The notes below the pieces were generated by a model. That model worked only from the letters and a program-made list of their open reading frames with translations, did not search any database and was not told the DNA's origin. DNA of 64,000 nt from an uncultured Actinomycetes bacterium (GTDB lineage Bacteria; Actinomycetota; Thermoleophilia; Solirubrobacterales; Solirubrobacteraceae): NCBI GenBank assembly GCA_963742745.1, contig CAVUND010000018.1:3481-67480 (forward strand). The letters run 5' to 3'. Made by a program: the position numbers and the translations under genes. Below are positions 2,891 through 52,290 of the stretch, piece after piece (position 1 is the stretch's first letter; every line of letters begins with the position of its first letter).

Positions 2891-2895
2891 GTTAG

Positions 2896-3126: not shown

Positions 3127-3494
3127 GCGCGGTTCCTTTCGGCGGACGGCCACACGACGGCGCGTGTAGAACAACGAGCCCCAAACGAGCCCCTTGGGGG
3201 TGAGAACGCGGAGCATCCGCCACCGGATCACTGACCTTCGGCTTCGCCCAACGAGATCAGCCCGCACATCAAGCACTTTGCGGGGCAGTGCGCGACGTAC
3301 TTCGGGGGCCAACTACCTTTCCGCGCGTGACCGGCGGGGCTCTTCTCGCGGGTGGCGGACTTCTCCTGGCGGTCGTCGGGCTCGTCTTGTTCGCGATGGC
3401 CGGAGGAGTCGAGACCGAAGGCGAGACGCTCGCCGGGCTCGGCGTGACTCTCATTGCGGGCGGCTTGCTCGTATTCGACTTCGGTTGGGCGCGT

Positions 3495-6946: not shown

Positions 6947-7560
6947 GTGAACGATCCGGACCGCGAACAGCGTCTTCTCGTGCGCAGTGGCCGCCAGCGG
7001 GTAGCGAGCTCGGCCGAACGCGTCGATACGCACTCTCCTGGGTCCCAGCGCGTAGCGTCCGCGATCAGCCACGCGCGCGTGAAGACCGACAAGATCGACG
7101 CCAGGGTCCTTGCTGATCTGCTGGCCGCCGACCTGATCCCCAACGTGTGGATCGGCGACGACCGCACGCGCATGCTGCGTCGACTCGTGTCACGCCGGCG
7201 CGGGCTGGTCAAGCGGCGCACGCAGGTCAAGAACGAGATCTCGGCGGTGATGCATCGCAACCTCAAAGACGCCACGGCTTTATCTCTGTCGCCGAAGCCG
7301 CGCGCGGGCCTTCTGCGTGCCTCTCGCTTGAAGTGACCGCCCAAAGCGCGTGACGGCGCAGCGATAGACGCCGCGTGGCGGCTTCCGCTTTCCTGGAAGC
7401 CAGCTGCTCGGCGCACTCGAGCGGGCTCCAGCAGCCGGTCGACGACCGGTGACCGAACGTCGTCCACGCTCGCAAGTCCCACGCGGGAGCGTGTCGTCCC
7501 GATAGGCCCGTCCGAAAGGGAATCCCGCAAGGGCACGTCATCCGGCGCAATCCGGCATTG
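6947..7560 (+). mobile_element. Second, unrelated IS110-family transposase remnant, degraded
   Basis: Translation is ARVKTDKIDARVLADLLAADLIPNVWIGDDRTRMLRRLVSRRRGLVKRRTQVKNEISAVMHRNL. No intact N-terminal domain is present. The downstream part is only faintly recognisable across frames and runs up to the thrB stop. Confidence 0.6.
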
Positions 7561-11973: not shown

Positions 11974-14844
11974 CTAGGCGCCCCCTCCCAGGGTTTCGTC
12001 CTGGGATCCCGTCAGGCCGAGCGCGGCGGCGAGCTCCGTGCGCGCGGTCACGTCGAGCTTGCGGTAGATGTTGCGCAGGTGCCACTGCACCGCCTTGGGC
12101 GTCACGAACAGGCGCTGGGCGATCTCGCGGTTCGTCAGTCCCTCGGCCGCCAGCACCGCAACGCGGTCCTCGCCGGCGGTCAGCGCCTCGCGCCCGCTCA
12201 GCAGCCGGCGCTCGCGGCGTGGGCGCGCCCCCGCCGTGACGAGCTCGGCGTGGGCGCGGTCGGCCAGAGCGCTCGCCCCGGCCCGCGCCGTGAGATCCAG
12301 CGCGGCGCGCAGGACGTCGCGCGCCTCGCCGCGCCGGCCGTCGCGGCGCAGCGCCATGCCGAGCTCGAGCGTCGAGCGCGCGTGCTCCAGGCGCCCTTCG
12401 GCTCCCTCGAGCACGGCGATCGACTCGCGCAGCAACGCGGTCGCGTCGTCGTCGTCGTCGTCGCCGCCGCCGGAGACGGAGCCGAGCGTGCGCAGCGCGG
12501 CACCGATCGCGTCGGGCACGCCGAAGCGGTGCGCCCATTCGAGCTCCTGCTTCGCCAGATCGCGCGCCTCGTCGCGCCGGCCCAGCGCCGCCAGCGCGAG
12601 CGCGGCATCCGCGCGCCAGGCGCAGGCCATCGGGTTGTGGACGATCGCGCCGACGATTCGCCCGGCGTCGCGGGCGTCGGCGAGCGCCGTGACCGCGTCG
12701 CCCTGCGCCAGGCGCAGGCGGCTGCGTGCGCAGAGCAGGAGCGCCAGCGCGAACGAGGGCGGCGCGGCGTCATCGACGAGCCCGCGGCGCAGCAGCTCGT
12801 CGGCCTCGTCGAGCGCGCCGCGCAGGACCAGCGGGCCGACGAGGTGGGCCAGCGTCCAGGCGTACGCCGCCGGCCCGCTGCCCGACTCGACGAGCTCGAG
12901 GCCCAGCCGCGCCTCGGCCTCAGCCCGGCGCACGTCGCCCAGCCGCAGGGAGACGTCGGCGCGCATCACCAGCTGCCAGGAGAGGGTGAGGCGGCTTCCG
13001 CGTCGCGTGGCGGCGGCGAGCGCGTCGTCGTAGAAGCGCCCGGCGCGCACGAGCGCGCCGGCGAACAGCAGCGCGTTGCCGATGCAGCCGCCGACGATGC
13101 TGTTGGGCTCGTCGCCCTGCCACCCGGCGAGCGAGGCCCGCGCGAGGCCCAGCGCGTCCGCCGCCGGCGGCACGGCCGTGACCCGCGCCAGCGCGAGGCA
13201 GGCCAGCGTCGGCGGCTGCAGGCGCGCGCCGGCGGCGAGCTCGGCGAAGCGCCGCTCCCAGCGCGCCCGCGCCGGGGCCGCGACCGTGAAGTCGTTGAGC
13301 GCGATCGTCAGCAGCTCGGCCTCGAGCGCCACGGCGAGCGGCGACTCGAGATCGGCCTGCTCGCGCAGCGCGCCGTCGAGCACGTCGACCGCCGCAGCGA
13401 AGTCGCCGAACGCCGCGAGCGCCCGCCCGAGGTCCAGCGCTGCGGCGGCGCGCACGTCGGTCGTGCGGGTCGCGGCGATCGCGGCGCGCAGGTGCGCCTC
13501 GAAGCGGTCCCGGCGCCGGTCGGTCGCCTCGGCCAGCCCGAGCTCGTGTAGCACCCCGGCCAGATGCGCGGCGGCGGGCGGCTCCTGCAGCGCGCGGTCC
13601 AGGTAGCCGACGGCCGCCTCCGGCGCACCGCGCGCGGCGGCCCGGCGCGCGGCCGCGCGCAGGCGGGCGACGCGGGCGCCGTCGCCGGACGGGGTGACCC
13701 GCAGCAGGTGCGCGGCGACGCGCTCGTCGTCGGCGCCGCCGTCCGCCAACAGCGCGGCGGCCGCGGCGTGCAGCGCGACCCGTTCATGCGCCGCGATCGA
13801 GTCGTAGATCGACGCAGCGACGAGCGGATGCTCGAAGTCGAGCGTCTCCCCGGACGCCAACACGGCGACGGCGGCCAGCGCATCGGCCGCTGCGCCCGCC
13901 ACGTCCTCGCCCAGGCCGGCGAGCTGCGCGGCGTCGGTGAGGCGTGCCGCGGGACCGAGCACCGCAACCGCCCGTGCGAGGGCCGCCGCCTCCGGGCCGA
14001 GCGCGCGCAGCCGCCGGCGGACGGAGCGAGCGACGCGCTCGCTGCCGAAGGCGACCACCCGCTCGGCGTCGGCGTCGGTGCCGGCGGCGCCGTCGGACGA
14101 CAGCTCGCCGACGAGCTCCCCGAGCAGGAATGGGTTGCCGCCGGTGGCGCGATGACAGGCGGCGGTGAACGCGTCGGTGGCCGCGCCGAGCCGCGAGCGC
14201 ACGAGCTGCGCCGTCGCCTCGGCAGTGAGGGCGGGGAGCCGCAGGACGGTCGGCGCCGCCACCGCGAGCGCGTCGAGCAGCGCCTGATCGGCGCCGGGCT
14301 CGCGCGGGCGCATCGCCCCCACGAGCGCGAGCGGAAGCTCCTCGAGACGCTCCGCGAGCAGGACGAGAAAGCGCAAGGACGCGGCGTCGGCCCACTGCAG
14401 GTCGTCGGCGACGATCGCGAGGGGCCCGCGCGCCGCCAGATCCCCGACGAGCCACTCGAGCGCGCGCAAGGTCCCGAACCCCGCCGCGTCACCCGCCGCC
14501 GTCGTGGCCGCCTCGTCGAGCAGCACCGGCCGCGCGGCCTCGGCGCCGGCGCTCCACAGCCGCGGGTCCTCGGCGACCGCACGCGCCAGCAGCTGACGGA
14601 CGACCCCGAAGCCGAACGGCCGCTCGAGCTCCGAGCCGCGTCCGCGCAGGATCGTGAAGCCCGCCTCGCCGGCGCGTTGGGCGGCGAGCCGCAGCAGCCG
14701 TGTCTTGCCAACCCCTGCCTGCGCCTCGACCAACACCGTCGCGCCGCGACCGGTCTTCACGTCGCGCAGCAGCGCGTCTACGACCGCGAGCTCGCGCTCG
14801 CGCTCGAACAGCAGCCCGCTCGCAGGTTCGACGCCGGCCGGCAC
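11974..14844 (-). CDS. Large ATP-binding LuxR-family (LAL/MalT-like) transcriptional regulator, copy 1
   Basis: Start placed at GTG 14844 (GGGAGGG 7 nt upstream) by alignment with copy 2. Walker A is VEAQAGVGKTRLL. A long helical/TPR-like middle region follows. C-terminal LuxR HTH: LTAGEDRVAVLAAEGLTNREIAQRLFVTPKAVQWHLRNIYRKLDV. Confidence 0.85.
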   Translation of the reverse strand: MPAGVEPASGLLFERERELAVVDALLRDVKTGRGATVLVEAQAGVGKTRLLRLAAQRAGEAGFTILRGRGSELERPFGFGVVRQLLARAVAEDPRLWSAGAEAARPVLLDEAATTAAGDAAGFGTLRALEWLVGDLAARGPLAIVADDLQWADAASLRFLVLLAERLEELPLALVGAMRPREPGADQALLDALAVAAPTVLRLPALTAEATAQLVRSRLGAATDAFTAACHRATGGNPFLLGELVGELSSDGAAGTDADAERVVAFGSERVARSVRRRLRALGPEAAALARAVAVLGPAARLTDAAQLAGLGEDVAGAAADALAAVAVLASGETLDFEHPLVAASIYDSIAAHERVALHAAAAALLADGGADDERVAAHLLRVTPSGDGARVARLRAAARRAAARGAPEAAVGYLDRALQEPPAAAHLAGVLHELGLAEATDRRRDRFEAHLRAAIAATRTTDVRAAAALDLGRALAAFGDFAAAVDVLDGALREQADLESPLAVALEAELLTIALNDFTVAAPARARWERRFAELAAGARLQPPTLACLALARVTAVPPAADALGLARASLAGWQGDEPNSIVGGCIGNALLFAGALVRAGRFYDDALAAATRRGSRLTLSWQLVMRADVSLRLGDVRRAEAEARLGLELVESGSGPAAYAWTLAHLVGPLVLRGALDEADELLRRGLVDDAAPPSFALALLLCARSRLRLAQGDAVTALADARDAGRIVGAIVHNPMACAWRADAALALAALGRRDEARDLAKQELEWAHRFGVPDAIGAALRTLGSVSGGGDDDDDDATALLRESIAVLEGAEGRLEHARSTLELGMALRRDGRRGEARDVLRAALDLTARAGASALADRAHAELVTAGARPRRERRLLSGREALTAGEDRVAVLAAEGLTNREIAQRLFVTPKAVQWHLRNIYRKLDVTARTELAAALGLTGSQDETLGGGA
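12445..12462 (-). repeat. (GTC)6 microsatellite followed by (GCC)3, encoding the GGGDDDDDD linker in LAL copy 1
   Basis: Read directly from the sequence: gtcgtcgtcgtcgtcgtc gccgccgcc. Confidence 0.9.
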
Positions 14845-14962
14845 CCGGCAACCCTCCCACAGCGGAGTCTCCGCACGATCCGCACGAACGCGCTTGAGCC
14901 GTGATGCGAATCCTGCGGCGGGCGCGGCATCGCTGCCGCGCCCCCCGCCGTCGTGCTCGAGA

Positions 14963-15805
14963 TCAATCGATGACGAAGCTGTCTCTCCCGTCGTCGTTCG
15001 TCCAGCTGCACCCCAGCGATCGCCCCTTCGCCAGCGCGAGGTTGACCGCGTTGGCATCGGCGGTCGTCCCAGAGGGGGAGATCCAGCTGTCGAAGGAGCT
15101 GTCGTACTGGTTTCGGAGCGCGTTGCAGCGACGGTTCTTGAAGAACGCCTGAGTCTGCGGTGGAGCGTTCGGGTCCTCCTGCACGCCGACGAGCGCCTGG
15201 TCGGAGGGGCTCAGCGGCGGGCTGGACACACCGGTCGTCGTCGCCTTGGACTTGCCGCCCGCCTCGTCGGACGTCTGTACGCCCTTGAGCTCCAGCGCGT
15301 CGCTGACGACCCAGCCACGCGTGACGCCCTCGACCTGCTCACGGAAGTAGCCACCCACCTTCGTCGGTGCGAGCGCGAAGTCGTCGGTCACGGCGCCGGC
15401 CTTGACCGCGGCGCGGCGGGGCGTGTCGCCGGACAGCTCCAGGTCGACAGTGCCGGCGCCCTTGACGGCGTTTAGGGTGGCGCTGTCCGCGCCGTCCTCG
15501 ATCGAGCCCGCGAAGGCGCGGCCGAGCGTCTTGCCGTCGCAGAGGTAGGCGACGGCCTTACCGTCATCGGCGATCGTCACCGCGAGGCCGTAGTCCTTGC
15601 CCTCGTCGGTGTCGACGAAGCGGGCGAGCTGTGCCGGGTACTCCTCGCCGAGCGTGGGTATCTGCTCCAGCAGCGCGCTGCTGGCGGGGGCCGAGATCGG
15701 CGTTGCGTCGTCGTCGCCGCCACACGCGGACAGCACGGCGGCCGACAGCAGGACGACCATGGAGGCCGTGGCCAGCCCGAACATCGACTGCACGAACTTC
15801 AGCAT
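14963..15805 (-). CDS. Lipoprotein of unknown family (paralog 2)
   Basis: Signal with lipobox: MLKFVQSMFGLATASMVVLLSAAVLSAC. Shares with paralog 1 the stretches [103 protein letters not shown] and a C-terminal RC...LGC cysteine pair. Confidence 0.75.
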   Translation of the reverse strand: MLKFVQSMFGLATASMVVLLSAAVLSACGGDDDATPISAPASSALLEQIPTLGEEYPAQLARFVDTDEGKDYGLAVTIADDGKAVAYLCDGKTLGRAFAGSIEDGADSATLNAVKGAGTVDLELSGDTPRRAAVKAGAVTDDFALAPTKVGGYFREQVEGVTRGWVVSDALELKGVQTSDEAGGKSKATTTGVSSPPLSPSDQALVGVQEDPNAPPQTQAFFKNRRCNALRNQYDSSFDSWISPSGTTADANAVNLALAKGRSLGCSWTNDDGRDSFVID

Positions 15806-16405: not shown

Positions 16406-19264
16406 GTGGACTCATTCGCCGGTAGGGCCGGGAGCGATCTCCTGGAGCGCGAATCCGAGACGGCCGCGCTGACGGCCCTGCTCGATCTGGCCTGCGCCGG
16501 CACGGGCCGCGTCGCCCTCATCGAGGGCCCGCCCGGCATCGGAAAGAGCGCGTTGCTGGAGTGCACCAAGCGGCTCGCGCCTGAGCGCGGCATGCGTGTC
16601 CTCGCCGCCCGCGGCGGCGCGCTGGAGCGCGACTTCTCGTTCGGCGTGGTGCGCCAGCTCTTCGAGCCGTTCGTCACCGCCGACGCGCTCGTCGCGCGGG
16701 GCCGGCTGTTCGAGGGCGCCGCGGGGATCGCCGCGGAGTTGCTGGGCGCGCAGCCGCCGGCCGGCGCGCAGCCGCCGAGCGGCGAGCTGTTCGCCCTGTT
16801 GCACGGCCTGCACTGGCTGACCGCGGGGATCGCCGCCGACGGCCCGCTGCTCATCGCGCTCGACGACGCGCACTGGATCGACGTGCCGTCGCTGCGCTAC
16901 GCGCAGTACCTCGCCCGCCGACTCGACGAGCTGCCCGTGCTGCTCGTCCTGACCGCGCGATCGACCGAGCCCGACGCCCCGCTGGAGCTCATCGACGCGA
17001 TCGCCGGCGAGCCGGTGACGAGCACGATCCGTCCCGGGCCGCTCAGCCCCACCGCGGCCGGCGACGTCCTGCGCGAGCTGTTCGCCACGGAGCCCGACGC
17101 GGAGTTCGTACGCACCTCGCACGAGGCCAGCCGCGGCAACCCGTTCCTGCTCACCGAGCTCGCCCGCGCGCTCGCTGCCGACGGCGCGGCGCCCGACAGC
17201 GCGGCGTCGGCGAGCATCCGCAACGTCCGACCGGAGGCGATCACGCGCAAGGCGCTCGTCCGTCTCGGCCACCTGGCGGTCGCCGACCAGCGCGTGGCGC
17301 GCGCGGTCGCGACGCTCGGCGACGACACCGCCCTGCGCCACGTCGCCGCCCTCGCCGAGCTCTCCGAGGACGAATCCGCCGATGCGGTCGACCGCCTCGC
17401 CGCGGCGGGCTTCCTCAACCCCGGGCGGCCGCTGCGCTTCACCCATCCGCTCATGCGCGCGGTGATCTACGACGACCTCGGACCTGCCCAGCGCGCCCGT
17501 CTGCACGGCCGCGCGGCGACGATGCTCGCCGCCGAGCCGGCCCGCCCGGAGCGGGTCGCCGCGCACCTGCTCTGGACCGAGCCGGTCGCCGACCCCGAGG
17601 CCGTCGGCTGGCTGCGGCGGGCCGCCGCCGAGGCCCTGCGCCAGGGTGCCGCGGAGACGGCGGTCGGTTATCTGCGGCGCGCGCTGGCCGAGCCGCCGGC
17701 GGCCGCCGACCATGCGGCGATTCTGCTCGAGCTCGGCCGCGCGGAGTCGGCGGCCGCGCTGCCCGAAGCGGCTGACCATCTGCTGCAGGCGTTCGCGCTC
17801 GCCACCGACCCTGCGATGCGCGGCGACGTCGCCGAGGCCGCCGGGCCGTTTCTGCTCTCCGCCGGCCGCACCACCGAGACGCTCGAGCTGCTCGACACGG
17901 TCATCGGCGAGCTGGCGGGACAGGATCCCGAGCGCGCACTGCAGCTCGAGTCCCAGTATGTCGCCGCGGCCATGCTCGATCCGGCCGCGGTGCAGCACGC
18001 GGTCGTGCGCTTCGAGCGTGTCGGCGAGCAGCTCGCCGGCGACACGCGCGGCGAGCGGATGATGCTCTGCCAGCTCGCCTATCACCGGATGTGGCGCTCA
18101 GAGGACGCCGCCCAGGCCGCGGCCCTCGCTCTGCGCGCCCTCGCCGGCGGCCGGCTGATCGCCGATCGCGGCGTCGTGCCGTACGAGCTGACCGGGCCCG
18201 CGATGGCGCTCATCTGCGCCGACGAACACCACGACGCGGGCGCGATGCTCGACGAAGCGGCGACCGCCGCCCGCCGGCACGGCTCCGAGCACGCGTTCTC
18301 ATGGGTCTGCTCCGCGCGCGGGAAGCTCGCCCACCGCCGCGGCGCGATCGGCGAGGCGGTCAGCGAGATGCGAGTGGCGCTCGAGGTGACGCTGCGCTCG
18401 GGCTTGCTGCTCGGCAGCGCGTTCAACGGCGGCGTCCTCATCGCCGCGCTCCTGGAGACGGGTCAGCTCGACGAGGCGCAGACGTGCCTGGAACAGATCG
18501 GACTCGACCGTGCGCCGATCCCACCGCCGGCGCCGTTCACGATCCTGCTCGCCGCGCGCGGCCGGCTGCGCCTCGCGCAGGGCGACGTCGCCTCGGGGAT
18601 CGCCGATCTCGAGGAGTGCGGCCGGCGCACGGCCGTCTTCGGCGCGAGGAACCCCGTCCTGTTCCCGTGGCGCGGCGCGCTGATGTTGGCGCTGCGCGAG
18701 CGCGGCGAGCTCGCGGCGGCGCAGGCACTTGCCGCGGAGGAACTCGCCGCCGCGCGCTCGTGGGGGACCCCCGGGGCGCTCGGCGGGGCCGAGCGGCTCG
18801 TCGCGCTGCTCAGCGACGACAGCGACGCGATGATCGCCGGGCTCGGCCGGTCCGCCGAGCTGCTGGCGGCGTCGCCCGCGCGCCTGGAACACGCAGGGGC
18901 GCTCGCCGACCTCGGCGCGGCGCAGCGGCGCGCCAACCGCCGCAGCGAGGCGCGCGAAACGCTGCGCGAGGCACTCGACCTGGCGCAGCGCTGCGGCGCG
19001 ACCGTGCTCGCCGAGCAGGCACGCAACGACCTGCTGGCGACCGGCGCGCGCCCCCGCCGGCTACAGCTGCGCGGCGTCGACTCGCTCACCGCGAGCGAGC
19101 GGCGGATCGCCGACCTCGCCGCCGCGGGGTTGTCGAACCCCGAGATCGCGCAGTCGCTGTTCGTCACGCGAAAGACGGTCGAGACGCACCTCGGGCGGGC
19201 GTACTCCAAGCTCGACATCCGCTCGCGCAAGGAGCTCCCGGCGGCGCTCGCGGCGCAGGACTGA
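16406..19264 (+). CDS. Large ATP-binding LuxR-family (LAL/MalT-like) transcriptional regulator, copy 2
   Basis: Walker A is IEGPPGIGKSALL. Long helical middle region. C-terminal HTH: LTASERRIADLAAAGLSNPEIAQSLFVTRKTVETHLGRAYSKLDI. It lies divergent to the 16248 operon. Confidence 0.88.
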   Translation: MDSFAGRAGSDLLERESETAALTALLDLACAGTGRVALIEGPPGIGKSALLECTKRLAPERGMRVLAARGGALERDFSFGVVRQLFEPFVTADALVARGRLFEGAAGIAAELLGAQPPAGAQPPSGELFALLHGLHWLTAGIAADGPLLIALDDAHWIDVPSLRYAQYLARRLDELPVLLVLTARSTEPDAPLELIDAIAGEPVTSTIRPGPLSPTAAGDVLRELFATEPDAEFVRTSHEASRGNPFLLTELARALAADGAAPDSAASASIRNVRPEAITRKALVRLGHLAVADQRVARAVATLGDDTALRHVAALAELSEDESADAVDRLAAAGFLNPGRPLRFTHPLMRAVIYDDLGPAQRARLHGRAATMLAAEPARPERVAAHLLWTEPVADPEAVGWLRRAAAEALRQGAAETAVGYLRRALAEPPAAADHAAILLELGRAESAAALPEAADHLLQAFALATDPAMRGDVAEAAGPFLLSAGRTTETLELLDTVIGELAGQDPERALQLESQYVAAAMLDPAAVQHAVVRFERVGEQLAGDTRGERMMLCQLAYHRMWRSEDAAQAAALALRALAGGRLIADRGVVPYELTGPAMALICADEHHDAGAMLDEAATAARRHGSEHAFSWVCSARGKLAHRRGAIGEAVSEMRVALEVTLRSGLLLGSAFNGGVLIAALLETGQLDEAQTCLEQIGLDRAPIPPPAPFTILLAARGRLRLAQGDVASGIADLEECGRRTAVFGARNPVLFPWRGALMLALRERGELAAAQALAAEELAAARSWGTPGALGGAERLVALLSDDSDAMIAGLGRSAELLAASPARLEHAGALADLGAAQRRANRRSEARETLREALDLAQRCGATVLAEQARNDLLATGARPRRLQLRGVDSLTASERRIADLAAAGLSNPEIAQSLFVTRKTVETHLGRAYSKLDIRSRKELPAALAAQD

Positions 19265-40702: not shown

Positions 40703-41098
40703 TCAGGGCGCGGGCGCCACCGGCAGGCCGGCGTCGCGCCAGGCCTGAAAGCCGCCGACGAGATCGGTCGCGGCGGCGAAGCCGAGCTGCTGCAGCGTGG
40801 CCGCGGCGAGGCTCGACTGGTAGCCCCCGTCGCACATCAGGATGATGCGGCGCTCGAGGCCGCCGACGCGCTCGTCGTACGCCTCGCAGCTGGGGTCGCA
40901 GCGCCACTCGAGCACGTTGCGGGCAAACCAGATCGTGCCCACCACGATCCCGTCGGCGGCCCGTTGGGACTCCGACCGGATGTCGATCATGAGCGCGCCG
41001 TCGCCGATCGCGTCGCGCGCCTCCTGCGGCCCGACGCGGACGAGCCTCTCGCGCGCCTGCGCGAGCAGCTCGTCGATCGTCGTGCGATTCACCGTCAT
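40703..41098 (-). CDS. Single-domain rhodanese (sulfur/selenium transferase-like)
   Basis: ATG at 41098 is preceded by GGAGGTTGGGAGG. Active-site loop ILMCDGGYQSS. Other motifs: IDIRSESQ and GGFQAWRDAGLPV. Confidence 0.8.
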   Translation of the reverse strand: MTVNRTTIDELLAQARERLVRVGPQEARDAIGDGALMIDIRSESQRAADGIVVGTIWFARNVLEWRCDPSCEAYDERVGGLERRIILMCDGGYQSSLAAATLQQLGFAAATDLVGGFQAWRDAGLPVAPAP

Positions 41099-41151
41099 CC
41101 TCCCAACCTCCAAACGTCGCCGGCCGGCCGGCGGAGGCTGAACCCGGCGGG

Positions 41152-41610
41152 CTACGGCTTCTGTTCGCGCATGCCCTTCACCGCCGCCGAGATGACCTCG
41201 GCGTCGAGCACGTCGGCCATGACGCCGATCTGTTCCTCCCAGACGTCGTCGTCGATCTGGCTGCGGAACTCTTCCTCGAGTACGTGATACACGGAGAGAC
41301 CCAACTGGGTCTCGGCCAATGCACCTGCATAGGTCGGATCGCCGAGCACAAGGGTCTCGGCGGCGATCTCCGCGCTCTCGTCGTCCGGAGCTCCGAGGAT
41401 GACGAGCAATTGCTCGGCCCCGTGCTCGTCGGCAAGGCGCTTGATCACTTCCTGGCTATTGAGGTCCATGGCCCCTGAGGCCGTTCAGACGAAGCACTCC
41501 GTCGACGTGTACTCGACCTTGCCGCCGGCGCTCTTCACGCAGGCCGCGATCGCGGGGCCCGCGACGCCGTCTCGCTCGCCGAGCACGATCACCATCTTGT
41601 TGTCGAACAT
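41152..41610 (-). CDS. grdA: Glycine/sarcosine/betaine reductase complex selenoprotein A, with in-frame TGA (Sec) at 41485-41487
   Basis: Translation from ATG 41610: MFDNKMVIVLGERDGVAGPAIAACVKSAGGKVEYTSTECFV-TGA-TASGAMDLNSQEVIKRLADEHGAEQLLVILGAPD ... GDPTYAGALAETQLGLSVYHVLE. This carries the canonical CxxU motif and GrdA-like sequence on both sides of the TGA. The track shows only the C-terminal 105 aa. Confidence 0.9.
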
Positions 41611-41616
41611 CGGGTG

Positions 41617-41958
41617 CTAACTCACCTCCTCTGTGTTCTCGTCGAGGCTCTTGTCAAGCCAGTCATTGAGCTGCGCGGGGCTGATCGTCGACTCCGACAA
41701 CCGCGCCACCTCTTCGCCGTCGCGCAGCAGCAGGAACGTGGGAAGCCCGTGGACCTTGAGGCGGATGCACACCCGCCGCGCCTTCGGCGCCTCGAGCATG
41801 ACGACGTTGATGTCGTCGCGTGCCTCGGCCAGCTTCTCGACGTGCGGCTTGAGCGCCAGGCACGGCCGGCAATCCGGTCCCCATACGTCGACGAGCGTGG
41901 TGCCGCTCTCGACGAGCTCGTCGAAGTTCTCGCGTGTCGCCTCGGCTACAGCACCCAT
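41617..41958 (-). CDS. Thioredoxin-fold protein with an atypical DCRPC redox motif
   Basis: Translation: MGAVAEATRENFDELVESGTTLVDVWGPDCRPCLALKPHVEKLA ... GLPTFLLLRDGEEV. It lies 5 nt after grdC and 6 nt before grdA. Confidence 0.85.
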   Translation of the reverse strand: MGAVAEATRENFDELVESGTTLVDVWGPDCRPCLALKPHVEKLAEARDDINVVMLEAPKARRVCIRLKVHGLPTFLLLRDGEEVARLSESTISPAQLNDWLDKSLDENTEEVS

Positions 41959-41963
41959 TTCGC

Positions 41964-43397
41964 TCACCCTTCCGCTTCGTTGGACTCGAGCAGCACGCTC
42001 ATGCCGTCGGACTGCTCGGACATGCGTCCCAGGAACAGACTGCCCTTTGCGATCAGCTGTACCCGATGTGCGCTCCCATCCATCAACCGGGCACGTGCAT
42101 GCGGGACGTAGCATAGGGCCGAGGCGATGTGACCCTGGGTCGGGGCGTAGCCGGGCATGCCCCGCTGCGCGACGAAGTCGCCCATGTCCTCGCGGCCGAT
42201 CTCGCCGCGGCGCAGCGCCAGAGCGGCGAGCGTCTTGTAGTTGCGCGCCGGGACGTCGCCCGAGCCCTGCGGCTCGGTGATCTCGGGGTTGTGCAGCTCG
42301 GTGGCGTAGTCGTCGACGTCGAGCGATCCCAGGCCGAGGCGCTCGAGGGGCGAGAACGCCAGGGCCTCCATGATCTTCGGGTTCGAGGACCCGGCGGCGA
42401 CGGTGTGGCGGCCGACGGAGTCCAGCCGCACGCGCGGCGAGCGTCCGTCGTCGGCCTCGACGAGCACGGCGCTCGCGCCGAGGACGTCCTCCAGCACCGG
42501 CAGATCGTGCTTGAGGTGCCCTTGGAACTTCATGCCCACCTTCGGAAGCGAGCCGCCCGCGACGACGACGACGCGCCCGAACACCCCGGAAGCGACGAGG
42601 CTGCTGGCGATGACCAGCGCGGGGATCGGGGCGGCACAGAAGTTCTTGACGTCGCAGCCCGAGGCGTTGCTGCAGCCCGCCGCCGCCGCCACGGACTTTG
42701 CGAGGTTGCCGCCGCCGCGCTGGTAGCGGTCGCCGATCGCCTCCTCGCCGGCGCCGATGACGTAGTCGATCGAGTCGGGGTCGATGTCGTTGTCGGCGAG
42801 CAGGCGCAGGAGGCCCAGCGTGGCGCTCGCCTTTCCGCAGAGGTTCTCGAAGAACACGTCGGCGGTCAGGGCGGCATCGCTCTCGTGGGCGCGCCGCACG
42901 GCCGCGGCGAGCTGATCGGCGCCGAGGTGCAGCTTCAGCGCGCCCGGCTCGGCCGCCACCGCTTCTGCGTCGCCGGCCGCGGCCGCCACCTTCTCGAGGT
43001 CGAGACGCTCGGCCAGCGGATGGCTCTGCAGCTTCTCCGCGATCGCGCCGGCGTGTGCCGCGTCGAGCCGCACGAGGCCGAAGTCGTCGACCGCCGCCAG
43101 CAGGCCGAGGAACTCGTCCTCGGGCATGAGCTCGCCGACGCCCGCGAAGCGGCCCTCGCCGTTGGCGGCCGCGCCGACCCACGGTCGCTCCGGCAGGTCC
43201 CGCGGATGGATCGCCCCGAGGTAGGCCTGATGCGGCGCGTAGGCGACCGCCTGCTCGAACGTGCGCAGCGAGCTCAGGAACTGCGCCTCGACGTCCGGGT
43301 TCTTGTGCAGCTCGCGCGACGGCTTGGAGCCGTGGCGGCACAGGCCGGGCACATGGACGAGCGCCGCGCTCGTGGCGCTGATGACAGGGACGGGCAT
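41964..43397 (-). CDS. grdC: Glycine reductase complex protein C, beta subunit-like (GrdC)
   Basis: Translation from ATG 43397: MPVPVISATSAALVHVPGLCRHGSKPS ... LRTFEQAVAYAPHQAYLG ... FAGVGELMPEDEFLGLL ... QRGGGNLAKSVAAAAGCSNASGCDVKNFCAAP ... VVVAGGSLPKVGM ... LEDVLGASAVLVE ... GMPGYAPTQGHI ... KGSLFLGRMS. This is colinear with clostridial GrdC as I recall it. Confidence 0.85.
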   Translation of the reverse strand: MPVPVISATSAALVHVPGLCRHGSKPSRELHKNPDVEAQFLSSLRTFEQAVAYAPHQAYLGAIHPRDLPERPWVGAAANGEGRFAGVGELMPEDEFLGLLAAVDDFGLVRLDAAHAGAIAEKLQSHPLAERLDLEKVAAAAGDAEAVAAEPGALKLHLGADQLAAAVRRAHESDAALTADVFFENLCGKASATLGLLRLLADNDIDPDSIDYVIGAGEEAIGDRYQRGGGNLAKSVAAAAGCSNASGCDVKNFCAAPIPALVIASSLVASGVFGRVVVVAGGSLPKVGMKFQGHLKHDLPVLEDVLGASAVLVEADDGRSPRVRLDSVGRHTVAAGSSNPKIMEALAFSPLERLGLGSLDVDDYATELHNPEITEPQGSGDVPARNYKTLAALALRRGEIGREDMGDFVAQRGMPGYAPTQGHIASALCYVPHARARLMDGSAHRVQLIAKGSLFLGRMSEQSDGMSVLLESNEAEG

Positions 43398-43404
43398 GCG
43401 CCCT

Positions 43405-44703
43405 CTATTGAACCGGATCGCCGTCGAAGACCGTCGGCTCGCTGACCTGCGTGCCGACGGCGACGAGCGCCCGTTCAAGCAGTTGCCGGCGCCAGGCGTG
43501 CTCCGCCGCGGGCCCGAGCTCGGGATCTCCCGCCGGGAACGGGATGCCGCGCGTGGGCACGATGCGCGGCGCGCCGACGCGCTTGGCGATCGAGACGAGG
43601 TTGCACAGCAGCGCGGTGGGGATCCCGGCGCGCTCCAGTTCCTTCGTGAGCGTTGACCCGCAACGCGTGCCGGTTCCTCAGGTGGCGGTGAGAATGACCG
43701 CCTGGATGTTCGCCTGGCGCAGCTCGGCCGCCCATTCCATCCCGAAGCGGCGCGCGTCGGCGACCGTCGTGCCGTTGCCGGTCGTCCCCAGGTACTCGCC
43801 GTGCAGGCGTCCGATCGCGCCCTCGCGCTCCATCTCGCGGGCGACGTCAAGCGGCAGGATGCGGTTGGGATCGGCGTTGGCCCAGACGGTGGAGAACCCG
43901 CCGTGCACGGACTCGAACTCGCCCTCTTCGACGGAGTCCAGGCCGTCGAGCGAGTGGCGCACCCACTTCGTGGCGCGCGCGGACTCCAGGCGGTCGGGGT
44001 TGCCGGCGGGCACGAAGCCGCCCTCGGTGACGAGCGCGAACAGCGCGTCGGTGACGTCGGCGACGGGCGCGGCCGGCGTGACGCTGTCGAAGTCGGGGAG
44101 CGGGATCTCGGTGGCGTCCTTGTCGCCGGCCAGGCGGGTCAGCACGAGCGCGACGGCGCGCTCGGCCGCGCTGTGTTCGGCCATGCGGTTGGTGCGGGCG
44201 ACCGGGCCGATGCGCCCGTCCTGCGCGGTGAGCTCGTCGCCTGCGGCGATGATTCGTGCTGCCGCGGCGAAGCGCTCGAGCGACTCCTTCATCTTTCGCG
44301 CCGTCTGGCCGCTCTCGACGACGGCCGTGCCGGCGGCCTCGCCCAGGCCGGGATTCTCGGGGTGCATCGACGCCAGCGCGGGCAACCCCGCCTCGCTGGC
44401 CGCCGCCGCGATCCGCGCGCACGCCATCCCGTAGCGCCCGCTCGTGAACGAGGGGCCGGCGATGATCATCTCGGCGCCGCGCTCCCTGGCCTGCGTGACG
44501 AGCTCGGCGGCGAAGTCGGCGTGCGAGGCCGCGTAGTCGTCGCCGCAGATGGCGGTGGCGACGATCTCGTGCTCGTCGCCGAGCAGCGAAGCCAGCTTGC
44601 GGCCGGGCCCGACGGCCCCGTCGCGCAGCTCGGGACCGGTGCCCGCGGAGTCCTCGCCGCCCATGCCGGCGAAGAACTGGTTGACGTAGTGGACGATCTT
44701 CAT
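43405..44703 (-). CDS. grdB: Selenoprotein B (GrdB/GrdF/GrdH family) with in-frame TGA (Sec) at 43678-43680
   Basis: Translation: [34 protein letters not shown] ... IIAGPSFTSGRYGMAC ... LVTEGGFVPAGNPDRLES ... VHGGFS ... LPLDVAREMEREGAIG ... GTTGNGTTVA ... AVILTAT-TGA-GTGTRCGSTLTKELERAGIPTALLCNLVSIAKRVGAPRIVP ... and stop TAG at 43405-43407. The track ORF ends at the TGA. Confidence 0.9.
43650..43666 (-). other. Candidate SECIS stem-loop of the grdB-like gene
   Basis: On the mRNA, UGA is followed by 11 nt, then GCGUUG-CGGGU-CAACGC (6-bp stem, 5-nt loop containing GGU). Confidence 0.4.
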
Positions 44704-46019
44704 GACGCGATCTCGGCCTCGGCACAGGTGAGTCTGCCCCAGCCCAGCGTGCTCTGCGCGCAGTAGACGGCGGCCACCGGCAGCTCGACCTCGTTGGTGG
44801 ACGCCTGGTCGAGCAGGGCGATCTTGTCACGGCCGAGCGCGCGGTCCACGGCGGGCAGCGTCATCCGCTCGTCGTAGTTGCCCGTGCTGACGAGCGCGGT
44901 CGCCTTCGTCGGCGGGACCACGAGCGGCGGCCCGGTCCCGTCGCGCCCCGCCATCTCGGCGAGGATGCCGATCGCCGCGATCCCCTCCTCCTCGAGGCGG
45001 TCCATCTTCAGCGAGACGTCGGCGTCGGCGTTGCCGCCGCCCTCCTTCGTCGCGATCGCGGCATCGAGGTGCAGTTGCTTGCACAGCCGCGCGGCGTGGG
45101 CGGAGACGAGCTCCTTGTCGGCCTGGTTGACGGGCTCGGGGCAGAGGATGAGCGCCGCCAGCTCGAGCTCGTCCGAGCGGGCGCGCAGGGCCGCGACCAC
45201 CGGATGGGTCTGGTGCAGATAGGTGGGGTTCTTCAGCGCGGGATGGCCGAACTGGCCGCTGACCACCGCGCCGTCGTCGAGCTCGCTGGGCGAGATGACG
45301 GTCGGCAGGCCACCCGACAGGCTGCGCCCGTAGACGAAGACGTCCTTGAACTTGCCCTGCGTCTGCAGGTTGAGGATGACGCCGACCCGCGGCTTGCCGT
45401 TGGCGGGTGCTTCTCCGGGCTCGGAGAGCTCTTCGACCGCGTCGGGCTCGGCGTCGAGCGCGGCCTCGGCGAGGTGGGCGGCGACCGTGACGAGCCCGCG
45501 CCGCAGCGCCGCGTCGACGTCGCCCCAGTCCGCGTCCTCGGCGGGCGTCCACTCGACGACGAGGTTATGCGTCGCGGCGAGCGGCGACAGCGGCGCCGCC
45601 GGCCCCGACATGTCGATGACCGCCTCCTGCGCGCGGGGCAGGTAGCCGGCGGCCAGCACGGCGGCGCCGCGCAGGACGTGCGTCTCACCGCGCCCCACGG
45701 GCATCGCCGGGCCGAGCAGCCCGGGGAACACGCCGCCCCCGCCGGGGCCTTTCGAGCAGGGCTGGACGGCGTCCAGCACGCCGACGATCCGCACGGAGTC
45801 GCCGGGCGAGGCGACGCCCAGCCGGACCTCGGCGAACGCGGGGTCGCGCAGGAGGTCGAGCACGGTCTCCTCGCCGACGGTGAGGCGCCCGTCGGAATAG
45901 CCCGTGCTCTCGCCGAGATCGAGCTCGCGCACCTCGTGGATCACCCGGGTCAGCCCGGTCTGCGCGTTCACGTTCTGAATGCTGCCAGATGTCGGCCAGG
46001 CGGGGTGATCCCCGGCCAC
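44700..46019 (-). CDS. GrdE/GrdI-family substrate-binding component B subunit (no proprotein-cleavage cysteine seen)
   Basis: Motifs: [18 protein letters not shown] ... VIDMSGPAA ... [22 protein letters not shown] ... [13 protein letters not shown] ... [16 protein letters not shown] overlap with the grdB start. The start codon is uncertain, with in-frame GTG alternatives downstream of 46019. Confidence 0.8.
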
Positions 46020-46122
46020 GCCGGATGCGCGATCGGCGGCGACGGCCCGCCGCAGGGCGCGTTTGGCGCGCGCGCGCCAGGGTATGGCCCGACGATCCTG
46101 AGGGTGACGTGAGGGGAGTCAG

Positions 46123-48231
<2,109 letters not shown>

Positions 48232-48319: not shown

Positions 48320-49353
48320 GTGAGCGATTCGCAGGCAGCGGCACCCGTCCCGCTGACGTCCCTCGCCCACGGCGCGGGCTGCGGCTGCAAGCTGCCGGCG
48401 GCGTCCCTGCTGCCGATCGTCCGTGGCCTGCCGGCCGTCGCCGACCCGCGGCTGCTCGTGGGCTCCAACACCGCCGACGACGCCGCGGTGTTCAAGTTGA
48501 CCGACGAGATCGCGCTCGTGATGACGATCGACTTCTTCACGCCGATCGTCGACGACCCCTACGACTTCGGGCGGATCGCGGCGGCGAACGCGCTGTCGGA
48601 CGTCTACGCGATGGGCGGGGTGCCGTTGGCGGCGATGAACGTCGTGGCGTTTCCGCTCGAGCGGCTCGGCGGCGACGTGCTGCGCGAGATCCTGCGCGGT
48701 GGCGCGGACATCGCCACCGAGGCCGGCATCGCCGTCGTCGGCGGGCACTCGATCGACGATGCCGAGCCGAAGTACGGGATGTCGGTCACCGGCACGGTGC
48801 ATCCCGACGAGCTCATCTCCAACGCCGGCGCGTGCGTGGGTGACGTGCTGGTCCTCACCAAGCCGCTCGGCGTCGGCGCGATCACGACGTCTCGCAAGCG
48901 CGGCAACCGCGACGACGAGCTCTTGGCGCGCGGCGTGGCGACGATGACCGCGCTCAACGACACGGCCTCCGCCGCGGCGCGCGCGGCCGGCGCCCACGCG
49001 ATGACCGACGTCACCGGCTTCGGGCTGCTCGGCCACCTGCACTCGCTCGGGCGCGCGAGCGCCGTCGCCGCGGAGATCGACGCGGCGTCCGTGCCGGCGA
49101 TCGACGGCGTGCTCGCGCTGCTCGAGGGCGACGACGCCGTCTCGGGCGGCAGCCGCCGCAACCGCGAGTACGCCGAGACGTTCACGGTCTTCGCGACGCC
49201 GATGTCGCGGAGGCGCGGCGGCGGCTGGTCTGCGACGCCACGACGTCCGGCGGGCTGCTCGTCGCGGTCGCGCCCGAAGCCGCCGCGTCGCTGCCGGGCC
49301 CGATCATCGGCGCGATCGTCGCCGGCGAGCCCGGCGCCATCGCGGTGCGATGA
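48320..49353 (+). CDS. selD: Selenide, water dikinase (Cys form), with an apparent one-base deletion near 49190-49198
   Basis: Motifs: LTSLAHGAGCGCKLP ... DDAAVF ... TIDFFTPIVDDPYDFGRIAAANALSDVYAMGG ... VVGGHSIDD ... MTDVTGFGLLGH ... GGSRRNREYAETF. The sequence then continues in the next frame as DADVAEARRRLVCDATTSGGLLVAVAPEAA ... IAVR, with a stop at 49351-49353. Length is 1034 nt, which is 3n-1. Confidence 0.88.
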
Positions 49354-49379
49354 TCGCCGTGCACGGGCACCACCTGCCT

Positions 49380-49470
49380 GGAGCGGCCCGGGCCCGGTGG
49401 CCCATCCGGTCTTCAAAACCGGCGGGGCGCGGCACACCGCGCTGGAAGGTTCGACTCCTTCGCCGTTCCG
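49380..49470 (+). tRNA. selC: tRNA-Sec (anticodon TCA)
   Basis: Structure read from the sequence: 8-bp acceptor GGAGCGGC/GCCGTTCC with one G-U pair; D stem GGGCC/GGCCC with a 4-nt loop; anticodon stem CCGGT/ACCGG with loop CT-TCA-AA; long variable arm GCGCGG-CACA-CCGCGC; T arm GAAGG-TTCGACT-CCTTC; discriminator G. No CCA is encoded. Confidence 0.93.
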
Positions 49471-49471
49471 T

Positions 49472-50779
49472 ATGAGCGACCACGACCGGCTGCGCGCGCT
49501 TCCCTCCGTCGACAAGCTGGCGACGATGGTCGCCCGCGCCGAGCTGCAGGCGCGGCGGGCGGATCTGCTCGACGGCGGCGCCGCGGCGGCCGACGACGAA
49601 CAGGTCGACCTCGTCGCCCGGGCACGGGCCCGCCTCAGACCGCACCTGCGGCGCGTGCTCAACGCGACGGGCGTCGTCGTCCACACGAACCTCGGCCGCG
49701 CCCCGCTCGCCGTCGAGGCGCAGGCCGCGGTGGCGGCGGTCGCCGGCGGCTACAGCAACCTCGAGCTCGACCTCGCCAGCGGCGAGCGCGGCTCGCGTCA
49801 TGCCCACGTCGAGGAGCTCCTGAAAGAGCTCACCGGCGCGGAGGCGGCGATGGCGGTCAACAACTGCGCCGCGGCGGTGCTGCTGGCCTGCGCCGCGCTC
49901 GCCGCAGGCCGCGACACCGTCGTCTCGCGCGGGCAGCTGATCGAGATCGGCGGCGGCTTCCGCATCCCCGAGGTGCTCGCCGCCGCCGGCACGCGGCTCG
50001 TCGAGGTGGGCACGACGAACCGCACCCGCCGCGCCGACTACGAGAGGGCGCTCGCTGCCGGAGGCGAGAGCGTCGGCGCGATCCTGCGGGCACATCCCTC
50101 CAACTTCCGCACGCTGGGCTTCGTCGAGGAGGTCGAGATCGAGGCGCTCTGCGAGCTCGGCGTGCCCATCATCGACGACGTCGGCTCGGGCGTGCTGACC
50201 GAGGACCTCGAGTTGCTCGCCGGCGAGCCGCCGGTGCGCCGGTCGGTCCGCGCCGGCGCGGCGCTCACGGCGTTCTCGGGCGACAAGCTGCTCGGCGGCC
50301 CGCAGGCGGGGCTGCTCGTCGGCACGCGCGCCGCGATCGAGGCCTGCCGCCGCCATCCGCTCGCGCGGGCCGTGCGGATCGACAAGCTCTCGCTCGCCGC
50401 GCTCGAGGCGACGCTCGCCCTGCATCGCGACCCGGCGGCGGCGCGGCGCGCGTTGCCGGTGCTCGCGATGCTCGAGGCCGACGCCGGGACGCTGACCCGG
50501 CGCGCGGAGGAGCTGGCCACCGCGACCGGCGGCACGCTCGTCGCTTCGACCGCGCGCGTCGGCGGCGGCGCGCTGCCGCTGCTCGAGCTGCCGGGGCCGG
50601 CGGTCGCGATCGACCCCGGCCCCGCCGGCGCCGACGCGCTCGCCGCAGCCCTGCGGGCCGGCGATCCCGCCGTCGTGGGCCGCATTCACGACGGCCGCCT
50701 CCTGCTCGACCCGCGCACGCTGACCGACAACGAGGCGCGTGAGGTGGCGCGCGCGGTGCGCGCCGTCCTCGCGCCGTGA
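49472..50779 (+). CDS. selA: L-seryl-tRNA(Sec) selenium transferase
   Basis: Motifs: [17 protein letters not shown] ... [20 protein letters not shown] ... [16 protein letters not shown] ... [10 protein letters not shown] ... [19 protein letters not shown] ... [14 protein letters not shown] (PLP lysine) ... [14 protein letters not shown]. Confidence 0.92.
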
Positions 50780-52290
50780 GCGAGGAGCACGCGGCGGCCC
50801 TGACGCTCGGGACCGCCGGCCACATCGACCACGGCAAGACCGCGCTCGTGCGCGCGCTCACCGGCGTGGACACCGATCGCCTGCCCCAGGAGCAGGCGCG
50901 CGGTATGTCGATCGAGCTCGGGTTCGCGCCGTTGCTGCTGCCCGGGGGCCGGCGCGTCTCGGTCGTCGACGTGCCGGGCCACGAGCGCTTCGTACGCACG
51001 ATGGTGGCCGGGGCGACCGGGATCGACTTCCACCTCATGGTCGTCGCCGCCGACGACGGCGTGATGCCGCAGACCCTCGAGCACGCGGAGGTGCTCGCGG
51101 CGCTGGGGATCGATCAGGGCGTCGTCGCGATCACGAAGTGCGACCGCGCGTCCCCCGAGCGCGCCGCCGCGGAGGCCGCCGAGCTGTTTGCCGATGCCGA
51201 GATCGTGGCGTGCTCGGCGCGCACCGGCCACGGCGTGGCGGACGTCGCGGCGGCGCTGGAGCGCGCCGCGGCGCGGGTCACGTCGCAGGCCGAGCGCCAC
51301 CGCGACGGCCCGGCCGTGCTGCACATCGACCGCGCGTTCACGATCCACGGGGCCGGCACGGTCGTCACCGGGACGCTGTGGTCCGGCAGCCTGGCGGTGG
51401 GCGACACGCCGACCCTGCTGCCCGCGCAGCGGCCCGTCCGCGTCCGGTCGCTGCAGGTGCACGACGAGCCGGCCGAGCGGGCGCACGCGGGCCAGCGCGT
51501 GGCCGTCAACCTCGCCGGGATCGCGCGGCGCGACGTCGCTCGCGGCGACGCGCTCGCCGACCCGATGGCGGGGGTCGTGCCGACGCAGGTCGTCGACGCG
51601 GTGCTCGACCTGCGCGGCGAGCTGCGCGCCCGGCGGGTCATGGCCCACCACGGCACGCGAGCGGTGCCGGCGCGGCTGGTGGCGCTCGGCGACGCCCTGT
51701 GGCAGCTGCGCCTGGAGGCGCCGCTGCTCGCCGCCGCGGGCGATCGGCTCGTCGTGCGCTCGGTCGCGCCGCCCGACACGCTCGGCGGCGGCACTGTGAT
51801 CGATCCGGGCGCCCGCCGCCACGGTCGCCGCCCGGACGTGGTGGCGCGCCTGCAGCGGCTGCGGCGCGGTGAACCGGAGCCGGAGCCCGCTGCCGACGCT
51901 GCCCGCGCGGCGCCGGCGGCGGCCCCGCCGGGCCCCCCGCTGGAACCCGAGGCGATCGAGCTCGCCGGGCGGCTGCTCGCGGCCGGCCACGAGCCGCCCT
52001 CGCGCGCGGACCTGGGCGCCGCGGCAGCGCACCTGCCCAAGCTCGTCCAGGCGGGCCTCGCCGTGCGCATCGGCCGCGACCTCTACGCGCACCGCGACGC
52101 CATCGCGGCCGTCAAGGATCGCGTCGGCGCGATCATCGCCGACGAGGACGCGATCACGCTCGCGCGGCTGCGCGACGAGCTCGGCACATCGCGCAAGTAC
52201 GCCGAGGCGCTGCTCGAGCACCTCGACCAGGCACGCTTCACCAAGCGCCTGCCCGACGACCGGCGAGTGCTGCGCCGCCGCGCGGGCTGA
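50776..52290 (+). CDS. selB: Selenocysteine-specific translation elongation factor
   Basis: GTG is in a GTGA overlap with the selA stop. Motifs: [14 protein letters not shown] ... DVPGHERF ... AITKCD. C-terminal winged-helix region: [25 protein letters not shown]. Confidence 0.92.

Follow-up and report, generated by a model that had tools for sequence, protein, structure and literature searches.

A probable GrdD-unlinked, non-pyruvoyl variant of the Grd-type selenoprotein reductases in Solirubrobacteraceae and related soil Actinomycetota

Which kind of reductase is encoded when genes of the glycine reductase (Grd) type occur in a high-GC soil actinobacterium? Grd-type reductases belong to strictly anaerobic fermenters of amino acids, whose energy yield is obtained via the acetyl phosphate made by GrdD. 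The question is raised by a 64-kb stretch of DNA (hereafter the window; ~72% GC) from an uncultured member of the Solirubrobacteraceae (assembly GCA_963742745.1, contig CAVUND010000018.1), in which a minus-strand block at 40703-46019 comprises six co-oriented open reading frames (ORFs) for a GrdE/I-like protein, a GrdB-like protein, GrdC, a Grd-type thioredoxin, GrdA, and a rhodanese. Comparison with orthologous loci makes it probable that this operon encodes a distinct and functional Grd variant of a non-pyruvoyl type, unlinked to GrdD. An initial annotation of the window had already proposed a variant reductase system rather than a textbook Stickland glycine reductase. The core of the proposal is upheld because the GrdE-like protein has no cleavage cysteines, the GrdB-like protein displays U-x-x-G, GrdC is altered, GrdD is absent within +/-10 kb in 81 loci, and the scores of the component B proteins against the specific NCBIfam models remain below the cut-offs. 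What carries it is a five-gene core with conserved differences in every catalytic component, while the arguments initially drawn from the rhodanese, a palindrome, and the absence of trxB and grdX have to be set aside.

Regarding the layout, all six genes were re-found in the tight minus-strand packing initially described, with spacings of -4, 7, 5, 6, and 53 nucleotides (nt) in order, and every product assignment is backed by Pfam and NCBIfam profile matches. The longest ORF of the GrdE-like gene is 46019..44700, but its start is put at a GTG at 45971 because the relatives show ATG AAC GCG after a GGAAGGA ribosome-binding site. The top NCBIfam match of the thioredoxin is the clostridial TrxA model (74 bits vs. 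a cut-off of 140). A non-canonical composition had also been claimed for the operon, yet its base composition is native as judged from the GC content at third codon positions (GC3), which is 0.86-0.95 in the six genes for a window median of 0.94. As a candidate explanation, horizontal transfer of the operon was ruled out on the same ground. A scan for consensus promoters and terminators gave nothing beyond chance level, and an Rfam scan of 40-53 kb had the selenocysteine (Sec) tRNA as its sole match, without any riboswitch or family of the selenocysteine insertion sequence (SECIS).

A scan with GrdC, using one genome per GTDB species, gave 258 relatives, the best 80 of which were used for locus comparisons; loci were inspected over +/-10 kb per genome, the 81 loci amounting to ~1.3 Mb in total. 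These best 80 of the 258 relatives are metagenome-assembled genomes (MAGs) of Solirubrobacterales, Thermoleophilaceae, Gaiellales, Acidimicrobiales, Pseudonocardia(ceae), and Dormibacterota, i.e., of at least two phyla, and their GrdC proteins are 63-93% identical to that of the window. As detected by tblastn, the order GrdE-like, GrdB-like, GrdC, thioredoxin, GrdA is found in nearly all loci containing the region. In one locus (L062) the thioredoxin is placed after GrdA, and about nine distant loci harbor four genes, the thioredoxin being absent; it is hence only the five-gene core, and not the six-gene arrangement initially described, that recurs in relatives. The thioredoxin site is W-G-P-[D/E]-C-x-P-C in most loci. 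In addition, >1,400 protein clusters matched the GrdB-like query; among the 120 best matches, all are 341 amino acids (aa) long and the named sources are Solirubrobacteraceae MAGs. The closest locus, L001, is a 339-kb ENA soil-metagenome contig encoding a GrdC protein identical to that of the window; it is nevertheless a distinct sequence, the identity being 99.5% in the grd region and 96.5% in the sel genes. This distribution is best explained by a vertically maintained operon in a clade centred on Thermoleophilia (Solirubrobacterales, Gaiellales). The annotation of the orthologues by JGI is inconsistent, many being named glycine reductase and many betaine reductase. The literature searched holds no link of glycine reductase or Grd proteins to Solirubrobacterales, Thermoleophilia, or other Actinomycetota beyond a 2006 selenoproteome survey, and the five-gene operon type is apparently undescribed in the searchable literature.

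The glycine reductases of Clostridium sticklandii and Eubacterium acidaminophilum have in common with the window the families PF09338, PF07355, and PF04723 and a GrdC made of DUF5940 and ACP_syn_III, as well as two selenoproteins, the C-x-x-U motif of GrdA, a dedicated thioredoxin with a WGPxCxPC site, and a SECIS after the UGA (in the window, that of GrdB). With loci L082 and L084 taken as canonical references (order trxB-trxA-grdE-grdA-grdB-grdC-grdD), the identity of the window proteins to those of L082 is 35% for GrdE, 45% for GrdB, 42% for GrdC, 49% for GrdA, and 39% for the thioredoxin. Besides the absence of linked grdD and trxB, the clade differs by its gene order, E-B-C-Trx-A vs. trxB-trxA-E-A-B-C-D, by the thioredoxin site (WGPDCRPC in the window vs. 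WGPTCEPC in canonical grd-linked TrxA), and by its hosts, which are high-GC soil Actinomycetota.

In component B, the differences concern both proteins. At the cleavage site of the GrdE-like protein, SGQF-GHPA stands in place of the canonical SGN/C-VSAC (the slash marking the site; DGAIVSGN/CVSACDKN in its wider context) and both autoprocessing cysteines are gone, Q-F/Y-G-H-P-A replacing N-C-V-S-A-C. The motif SGQ[Y/F/L]GHP, extending to SGQ[Y/F/L]GHP[A/S]LKNPT, is present in 63/63 GrdE-like relatives, and none of these orthologues has the pyruvoyl-forming Cys that a glycine reductase carries at the N/C site. In an exhaustive PF09338 search with representatives at 50% identity, clade members are at least 54% identical, two representatives reach 46%, and the rest do not exceed 40%; judged from these identities, the GrdE-like clade is isolated within PF09338. 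The family itself is poorly explored. Among its 122 full-length representatives at 50% identity (P0253-P0390), a handful keep SGNC and most have Y, F, or H, so that loss of the cleavage Cys is common in the family and non-pyruvoyl GrdE-like proteins dominate its sequence diversity. Neither the GrdE-like protein nor GrdC had a match at E<=0.01 in a PDB sequence search.

The GrdB-like protein displays U-G-T-G-T-R-C in 76/76 orthologues, as compared with U-G-T-C-T-R-C in canonical GrdB, which corresponds to U-x-x-G-x-x-C instead of U-x-x-C-x-x-C. Two of the generic features of a Grd system are present, namely a GrdA with C-x-x-U and a selenoprotein B of the TIGR01918 type paired with a PF09338 subunit. 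However, none of the specific NCBIfam cut-offs (GrdB, GrdF, GrdH, GrdG, FarE) is attained. The GrdB-like protein scores 393 against TIGR01917 (GrdB; cut-off 602; control GrdB of L082, 747), 437 against NF040794 (GrdF; cut-off 800), and 388 against NF040795 (GrdH; cut-off 775; control GrdH of L178, 798), and the GrdE-like protein scores 213 against NF040793 (GrdG; cut-off 780) and 126 against NF053623 (FarE; cut-off 675); the two sarcosine reductase cut-offs (GrdF, GrdG) are thus missed as well. A further unclassified protein B pair can be found at 510-3159 of locus L168, beside canonical TrxB, GrdA, GrdC, and GrdD. In this pair, the GrdB-like member displays U-G-T-S-T-R-C, the GrdE-like member is without the cleavage Cys (GWNALKAID), and the specific NCBIfam scores are all below cut-off. 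The Grd family contains further uncharacterised substrate classes.

Component C of the known reductases combines GrdC with GrdD (PF02504, with the catalytic Cys in ESGMGCTGP). In the clade, GrdC is present, and GrdD was found neither in the 64-kb window, as initially annotated, nor in the 81 loci, by tblastn or with a hidden Markov model (HMM) of 76 GrdD sequences run against six-frame translations. By comparison, a metagenome scan for the GrdD motif ESGMGCTGP in GC-rich codons yielded at least 120 loci, all of them with a true GrdD, which, wherever upstream sequence was captured, lies directly 3' of a canonical-type GrdC with 54-73% identity to L082 and 38-50% to the window. Canonical systems thus almost always have grdD linked to grdC, whereas the clade does not (0/81 loci). 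One locus, L148 (Ga0209467_1001289), is a canonical TrxB-GrdA-GrdC-GrdD cluster of 71% GC, whose GrdD is no more than 57% identical to any protein in the databases; high-GC organisms thus possess canonical GrdCD systems too. When 80 clade members were compared with 61 canonical GrdD-linked GrdC proteins, the clade GrdC proved to lack the C-x4-C pair (ECSEEAC becoming GAGEEAI), the His after FCAAP, and ~34 C-terminal residues, while Cys254 is retained and a conserved Cys429 is gained. Cys254 aligns with the nucleophile of FabH (Pfam ACP_syn_III, E = 1.5e-5).

The other two absences noted initially are of less consequence. No trxB could be found in the window (tblastn, E<=1e-3) or in the 81 loci, in agreement with the initial annotation, but this carries little weight as an argument for a variant, since a thioredoxin reductase of the housekeeping type may well take this role. 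Likewise, no ORF inside the operon is left unassigned that could be grdX, but the canonical loci L082 and L084 also have no ORF there, which again deprives the observation of most of its weight.

Both selenoprotein genes of the operon contain a single in-frame TGA, in the GrdB-like gene after codon 341 (43678-43680; context ILTAT-U-GTGTRCG) and in GrdA after codon 41 (41485-41487; context ECFV-U-TASG), and gene callers stop GrdB short at 341 aa and divide GrdA. The Sec codon has remained a TGA in 76/76 GrdB-like and 77/77 GrdA orthologues, and the U-GTGTRCG that includes the GrdB Sec is invariant in 76/76 loci. Downstream of it, codons +4 to +9 (ACG CGT TGC GGG TCA ACG) show 99-100% identity at the codon level among 76 distinct sequences, in spite of the rarity of CGT and TCA in the codon usage of these genomes and of the free variation at neighbouring synonymous sites. 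They form a 6-bp stem with a G-rich loop, in which RNAalifold finds six invariant pairs; there is no covariation because no position varies. Such frozen synonymous sites indicate that selection acts on the RNA itself at the predicted GrdB SECIS. Together with the nearby tRNA-Sec, selA, selB, and selD, this hairpin provides GrdB with what is expected of a bacterial selenoprotein. Substitutions among orthologues concentrate at the third codon position (0.25-0.32 per site vs. 0.06-0.13 at positions 1 and 2), which indicates purifying selection on the operon genes. In view of this bias and of their retention in all GrdB and GrdA orthologues, the in-frame TGAs are due neither to chance nor to decay, and the substitution pattern marks the operon genes as selected and not as pseudogenes.

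The rhodanese had been described as appended to the operon after a 53-nt gap. Gene and gap are indeed present, but of the 71 loci that extend far enough past grdA, only 7 have the rhodanese directly 3' of it, and four others have it on the far side of selB. The gene belongs to the accessory surroundings of sel and grd and not to the core; that it serves the trafficking of selenium or sulfur is speculative. The GC palindrome reported in the same gap also exists (CGCCGGCCGGCCGGCG at 41118-41133; 16 nt, not 14), but it is not exceptional in a sequence of 72% GC. The window has 42 palindromes of >=14 nt vs. 26 +/- 6 in Markov simulations, and the surrounding hairpin (41104..41140) folds no better than shuffles (z = +0.75). 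This frequency and this z-score ruled the palindrome out as a special regulatory site. In relatives, a hairpin with z < -2 directly follows the grdA stop in 30% of cases vs. 2.7% of coding controls, and the arm CAGCC[T/A]CC is common to the window element and to the post-grdA hairpins of the relatives. Most economically, the element is a weakened terminator hairpin of the actinobacterial type, without U-tract, that ends the core operon, which argues against the rhodanese as a core member.

Table 1. Features of the grd operon and of the adjoining catalase and sel genes in the window.
Feature	Coordinates	Strand	Evidence and remarks
Single-domain rhodanese, loop C-D-G-G-Y-Q-S	40703..41098	-	PF00581 39.7 bits
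Hairpin 3' of grdA, apex = GC palindrome 41118-41133	41104..41140	-	Fold -25.7 kcal/mol
GrdA selenoprotein A, motif E-C-F-V-U	41152..41610	-	NF040748 206 vs. cut-off 130
Grd-type thioredoxin, active site W-G-P-D-C-R-P-C	41617..41958	-	PF00085 58 bits
GrdC, component C beta subunit, shortened type	41964..43397	-	NF040746 565 vs. cut-off 450; Pfam DUF5940 + ACP_syn_III
GrdB-like selenoprotein B	43405..44703	-	PF07355 381 bits; TIGR01918 (generic family) 431 vs. cut-off 65
SECIS-type hairpin GCGUUG-CGGGU-CAACGC	43650..43666	-	11 nt after GrdB UGA; RNAalifold
GrdE/GrdI-like component B subunit, non-pyruvoyl type	44700..45971	-	PF09338 323 bits; 423 aa
Large-subunit catalase	46123-48231	+	Upstream of grd operon, divergent strand
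selD (frameshifted in window)	48320-49350	+	tblastn with Pfam-annotated L001 products
tRNA-Sec	49380-49470	+	ARAGORN; Rfam RF01852 66.7 bits vs. gathering score 47
selA	49472-50779	+	tblastn with Pfam-annotated L001 products
selB	50776-52290	+	tblastn with Pfam-annotated L001 products

Within 10 kb of the operon, selD is found in 26 loci, selA in 22, and selB in 18, while the catalase is next to the operon in only 3 loci (Table 1). The ~100-150 nt divergent intergenic region between catalase and grd genes contains a 16-nt palindrome, TGGCGCGCGCGCGCCA (46064-46079), which could be an operator. In the window, selD shows at 49185-49215 a 1-nt deletion relative to the near-identical L001 (TTCG-CGACGCC vs. 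TTCGCCGACGCC), which shifts its last ~45 codons and joins it in frame to selA as an ORF of 819 aa (48320-50779); either the assembly is faulty here, or selenophosphate synthetase is truly inactivated in the strain. The tRNA-Sec lies between selD and selA, its end being 2 nt from the ATG of selA, and ORF callers run selA upstream through the tRNA, which generates the N-terminal peptide AHPVFKTGGARHTALEGSTPSPF, an artefact repeated in relatives. When conserved neighbours were tried as clues to the substrate, the clusters remaining besides the sel genes were unrelated housekeeping genes or spurious antisense ORFs. Elsewhere in the window, two divergent ORFs of ~1,000 aa (11974-15057 on the minus strand and 16406-19264 on the plus strand), with N-terminal AAA/NTPase-like and C-terminal LuxR-type helix-turn-helix regions, look like LAL/MalT-like regulators.

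Some relatives depart from the window in detail. L001 differs by one inserted nt where the GrdE-like gene encodes its N-terminal portion (7490-7497; 387-aa call) and by an extra 228-aa gene between selD and catalase (4418-5163). In L002, L003, L019, and L026, ~450-700 nt separate grdB and grdC, a distance of 7 nt in the window; in L003 (9320-10000) the gap is without a convincing ORF, and an inserted repeat or mobile element could account for it. L002/L003 and L010/L034 are each two contigs of one MAG, both with a complete five-gene operon, and can be either paralogous copies or strain/haplotype duplicates in the bin.

Several other explanations of the operon have to be weighed against a distinct Grd variant. 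An orthologue of betaine reductase GrdH/GrdI, converting glycine betaine into trimethylamine and an acetyl unit, is unlikely, even though this enzyme is the closest mechanistic analogue: its substrate subunit has no cleavage Cys, so that no proprotein is processed and no Schiff base is formed, and the GrdI references L108 and L178 (SGSFMP) resemble the clade GrdE-like proteins in being non-processed. Betaine is moreover an abundant osmolyte of soil and plants, and many orthologues bear the name betaine reductase at JGI. However, the proteins are not orthologous to GrdH/GrdI, with 38% identity to GrdH vs. 45% to GrdB and 31-33% to GrdI vs. 35% to GrdE. GrdH keeps U-x-x-C-x-x-C (U-G-T-C-T-R-C in the true GrdH of L178), and the score of the GrdB-like protein against the GrdH model is half the cut-off that L178 exceeds. 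The GrdH/GrdI loci recovered adjoin TrxB, GrdA, GrdC, and GrdD, and no BCCT or OpuD transporter is linked to the operon. An ordinary Stickland glycine reductase with a split locus, where grdD and trxB are encoded elsewhere and glycine yields acetyl phosphate, is highly improbable. GrdA and GrdC clear the NCBIfam equivalog cut-offs, glycine reductase is the other JGI label of many orthologues, and the +/-10 kb seen in each genome leave room for a distal grdD; nevertheless, the absence of the pyruvoyl-site Cys in 63/63 orthologues, the TIGR01917 score (393 < 602), the loss of the C-x4-C pair and of the tail typical of GrdD-linked GrdC, and the adjacency of GrdD in 0/81 loci, when among at least 120 canonical loci it directly follows GrdC wherever upstream sequence was captured, all contradict it.

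A precedent for a protein B that has lost its cleavage cysteines and the Cys near Sec, as in the clade, is the fluoroacetate reductase of Cloacibacillus porcorum MFA1, in which FarB has no CxxC residues and FarE no cleavage cysteines, a leaving group being already part of the substrate (PMC10838667). The operon could accordingly be taken for a dehalogenating or detoxifying Far-type reductase acting on haloacetates, all the more as FarE is the second-best NCBIfam match of the GrdE-like protein. This is nonetheless very unlikely considering the FarE score (126 < 675) and the absence of a farA-type (major facilitator superfamily) transporter and a farC radical S-adenosylmethionine gene from the vicinity of the operon; Far also relies on the canonical GrdA, GrdC, and GrdD of its host encoded elsewhere (PMC10838667), and the phylum and ecology of that host differ from those of the clade. 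The D-proline reductase PrdA/PrdB belongs to the same superfamily, the C-terminal regions of PrdB and GrdB and the domains of PrdA and GrdE being related, but its matches are weak and partial (PrdB 73 bits vs. 300; PrdA 47 vs. 700). Prd requires neither GrdA nor GrdC. Finally, that the operon is a decaying or pseudogenised remnant, non-functional in aerobic Actinomycetota and with TGAs that are true stops, can practically be discounted. The truncated GrdB calls, the split GrdA calls, and the frameshifted selD of the window would suit a remnant, but the TGA occurs at the same codon in all orthologues with a conserved downstream frame, the SECIS is frozen at synonymous sites, substitutions follow the pattern of purifying selection, and tRNA-Sec, selA, and selB adjoin the operon.

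A number of points weigh against the reading as a distinct and functional variant. The sel genes are the sole recurring neighbours of the operon, and beside it there is no conserved gene for transport, regulation, or catabolism that would point to a substrate. The GrdD search covered +/-10 kb per carrier genome, and the carriers are all MAGs. When the GrdD of L148 was used in a protein search, the 120 best matches were from Firmicutes and Desulfomonile-type organisms only, with no named Actinomycetota. Among the matches listed by this search and by the motif scan, there were only canonical GrdC-GrdD pairs of other phyla, which does not amount to a demonstration that Actinomycetota are without GrdD. 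For GrdC, the FabH basis of Cys254 is weak, the alignment to 8vdb having E = 1.1 (PDB, E<=10), and for GrdA the SECIS is weakly defined, the candidate stem downstream of the TGA (CCU...AGG) having a 3-bp consensus. Lastly, the 1-nt deletion in selD, if real, would disable Sec synthesis in the strain.

Regarding the mechanism, a distinct Grd variant may be pictured by analogy with the glycine, betaine, and fluoroacetate reductases, its single steps being less certain than the existence of the variant. A GrdE-like protein that cannot form a pyruvoyl group would not hold the substrate as a Schiff base. The substrate would then probably be of the form X-CH2-COO-, in which X is already a good leaving group, as in haloacetates or onium compounds of the betaine type. 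It is expected that X is displaced in a direct attack by the GrdB-like Sec, after which the carboxymethyl group would move to the Sec of GrdA. There, the Cys of the C-x-x-U motif would resolve the intermediate and leave a Se-S bond, to be re-reduced by the dedicated thioredoxin, itself presumably reduced by a thioredoxin reductase encoded elsewhere. The two-carbon unit could be caught as an acetyl thioester on Cys254 of GrdC, at the position of a FabH-type nucleophile. Without GrdD, the acetyl group is more likely to leave as acetate or acetyl-coenzyme A (acetyl-CoA) than as acetyl phosphate, although an unlinked enzyme may also be involved.

Coordinated changes in three catalytic proteins, without a linked GrdD, are thus shared by no fewer than 258 genomes at the species level and by >1,400 protein clusters from metagenomes, and the carriers include uncultured soil Actinomycetota that rank among the most abundant. 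Since databases label the operon inconsistently and truncate both of its selenoproteins, it constitutes a concrete target for annotation. If active, it would add a substrate class, a product, or both to those known for the Grd family, and would make dominant soil bacteria dependent on selenium. It can tentatively be hypothesized, with somewhat less than even confidence, that the abundant and presumably aerobic Thermoleophilia of soil, together with their relatives, retain the Sec machinery mainly because of this GrdD-independent reductase, and that the enzyme acts on an unrecognised X-CH2-COO- substrate and delivers the acetyl group via GrdC alone, as acetyl-CoA or acetate instead of acetyl phosphate. 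Glycine betaine, dimethylsulfonioacetate, arsenobetaine, and natural haloacetates are candidate substrates in this case. Were this hypothesis true, it would represent a new output chemistry for Grd and a new selenium-dependent step in the turnover of carbon and nitrogen in soil.

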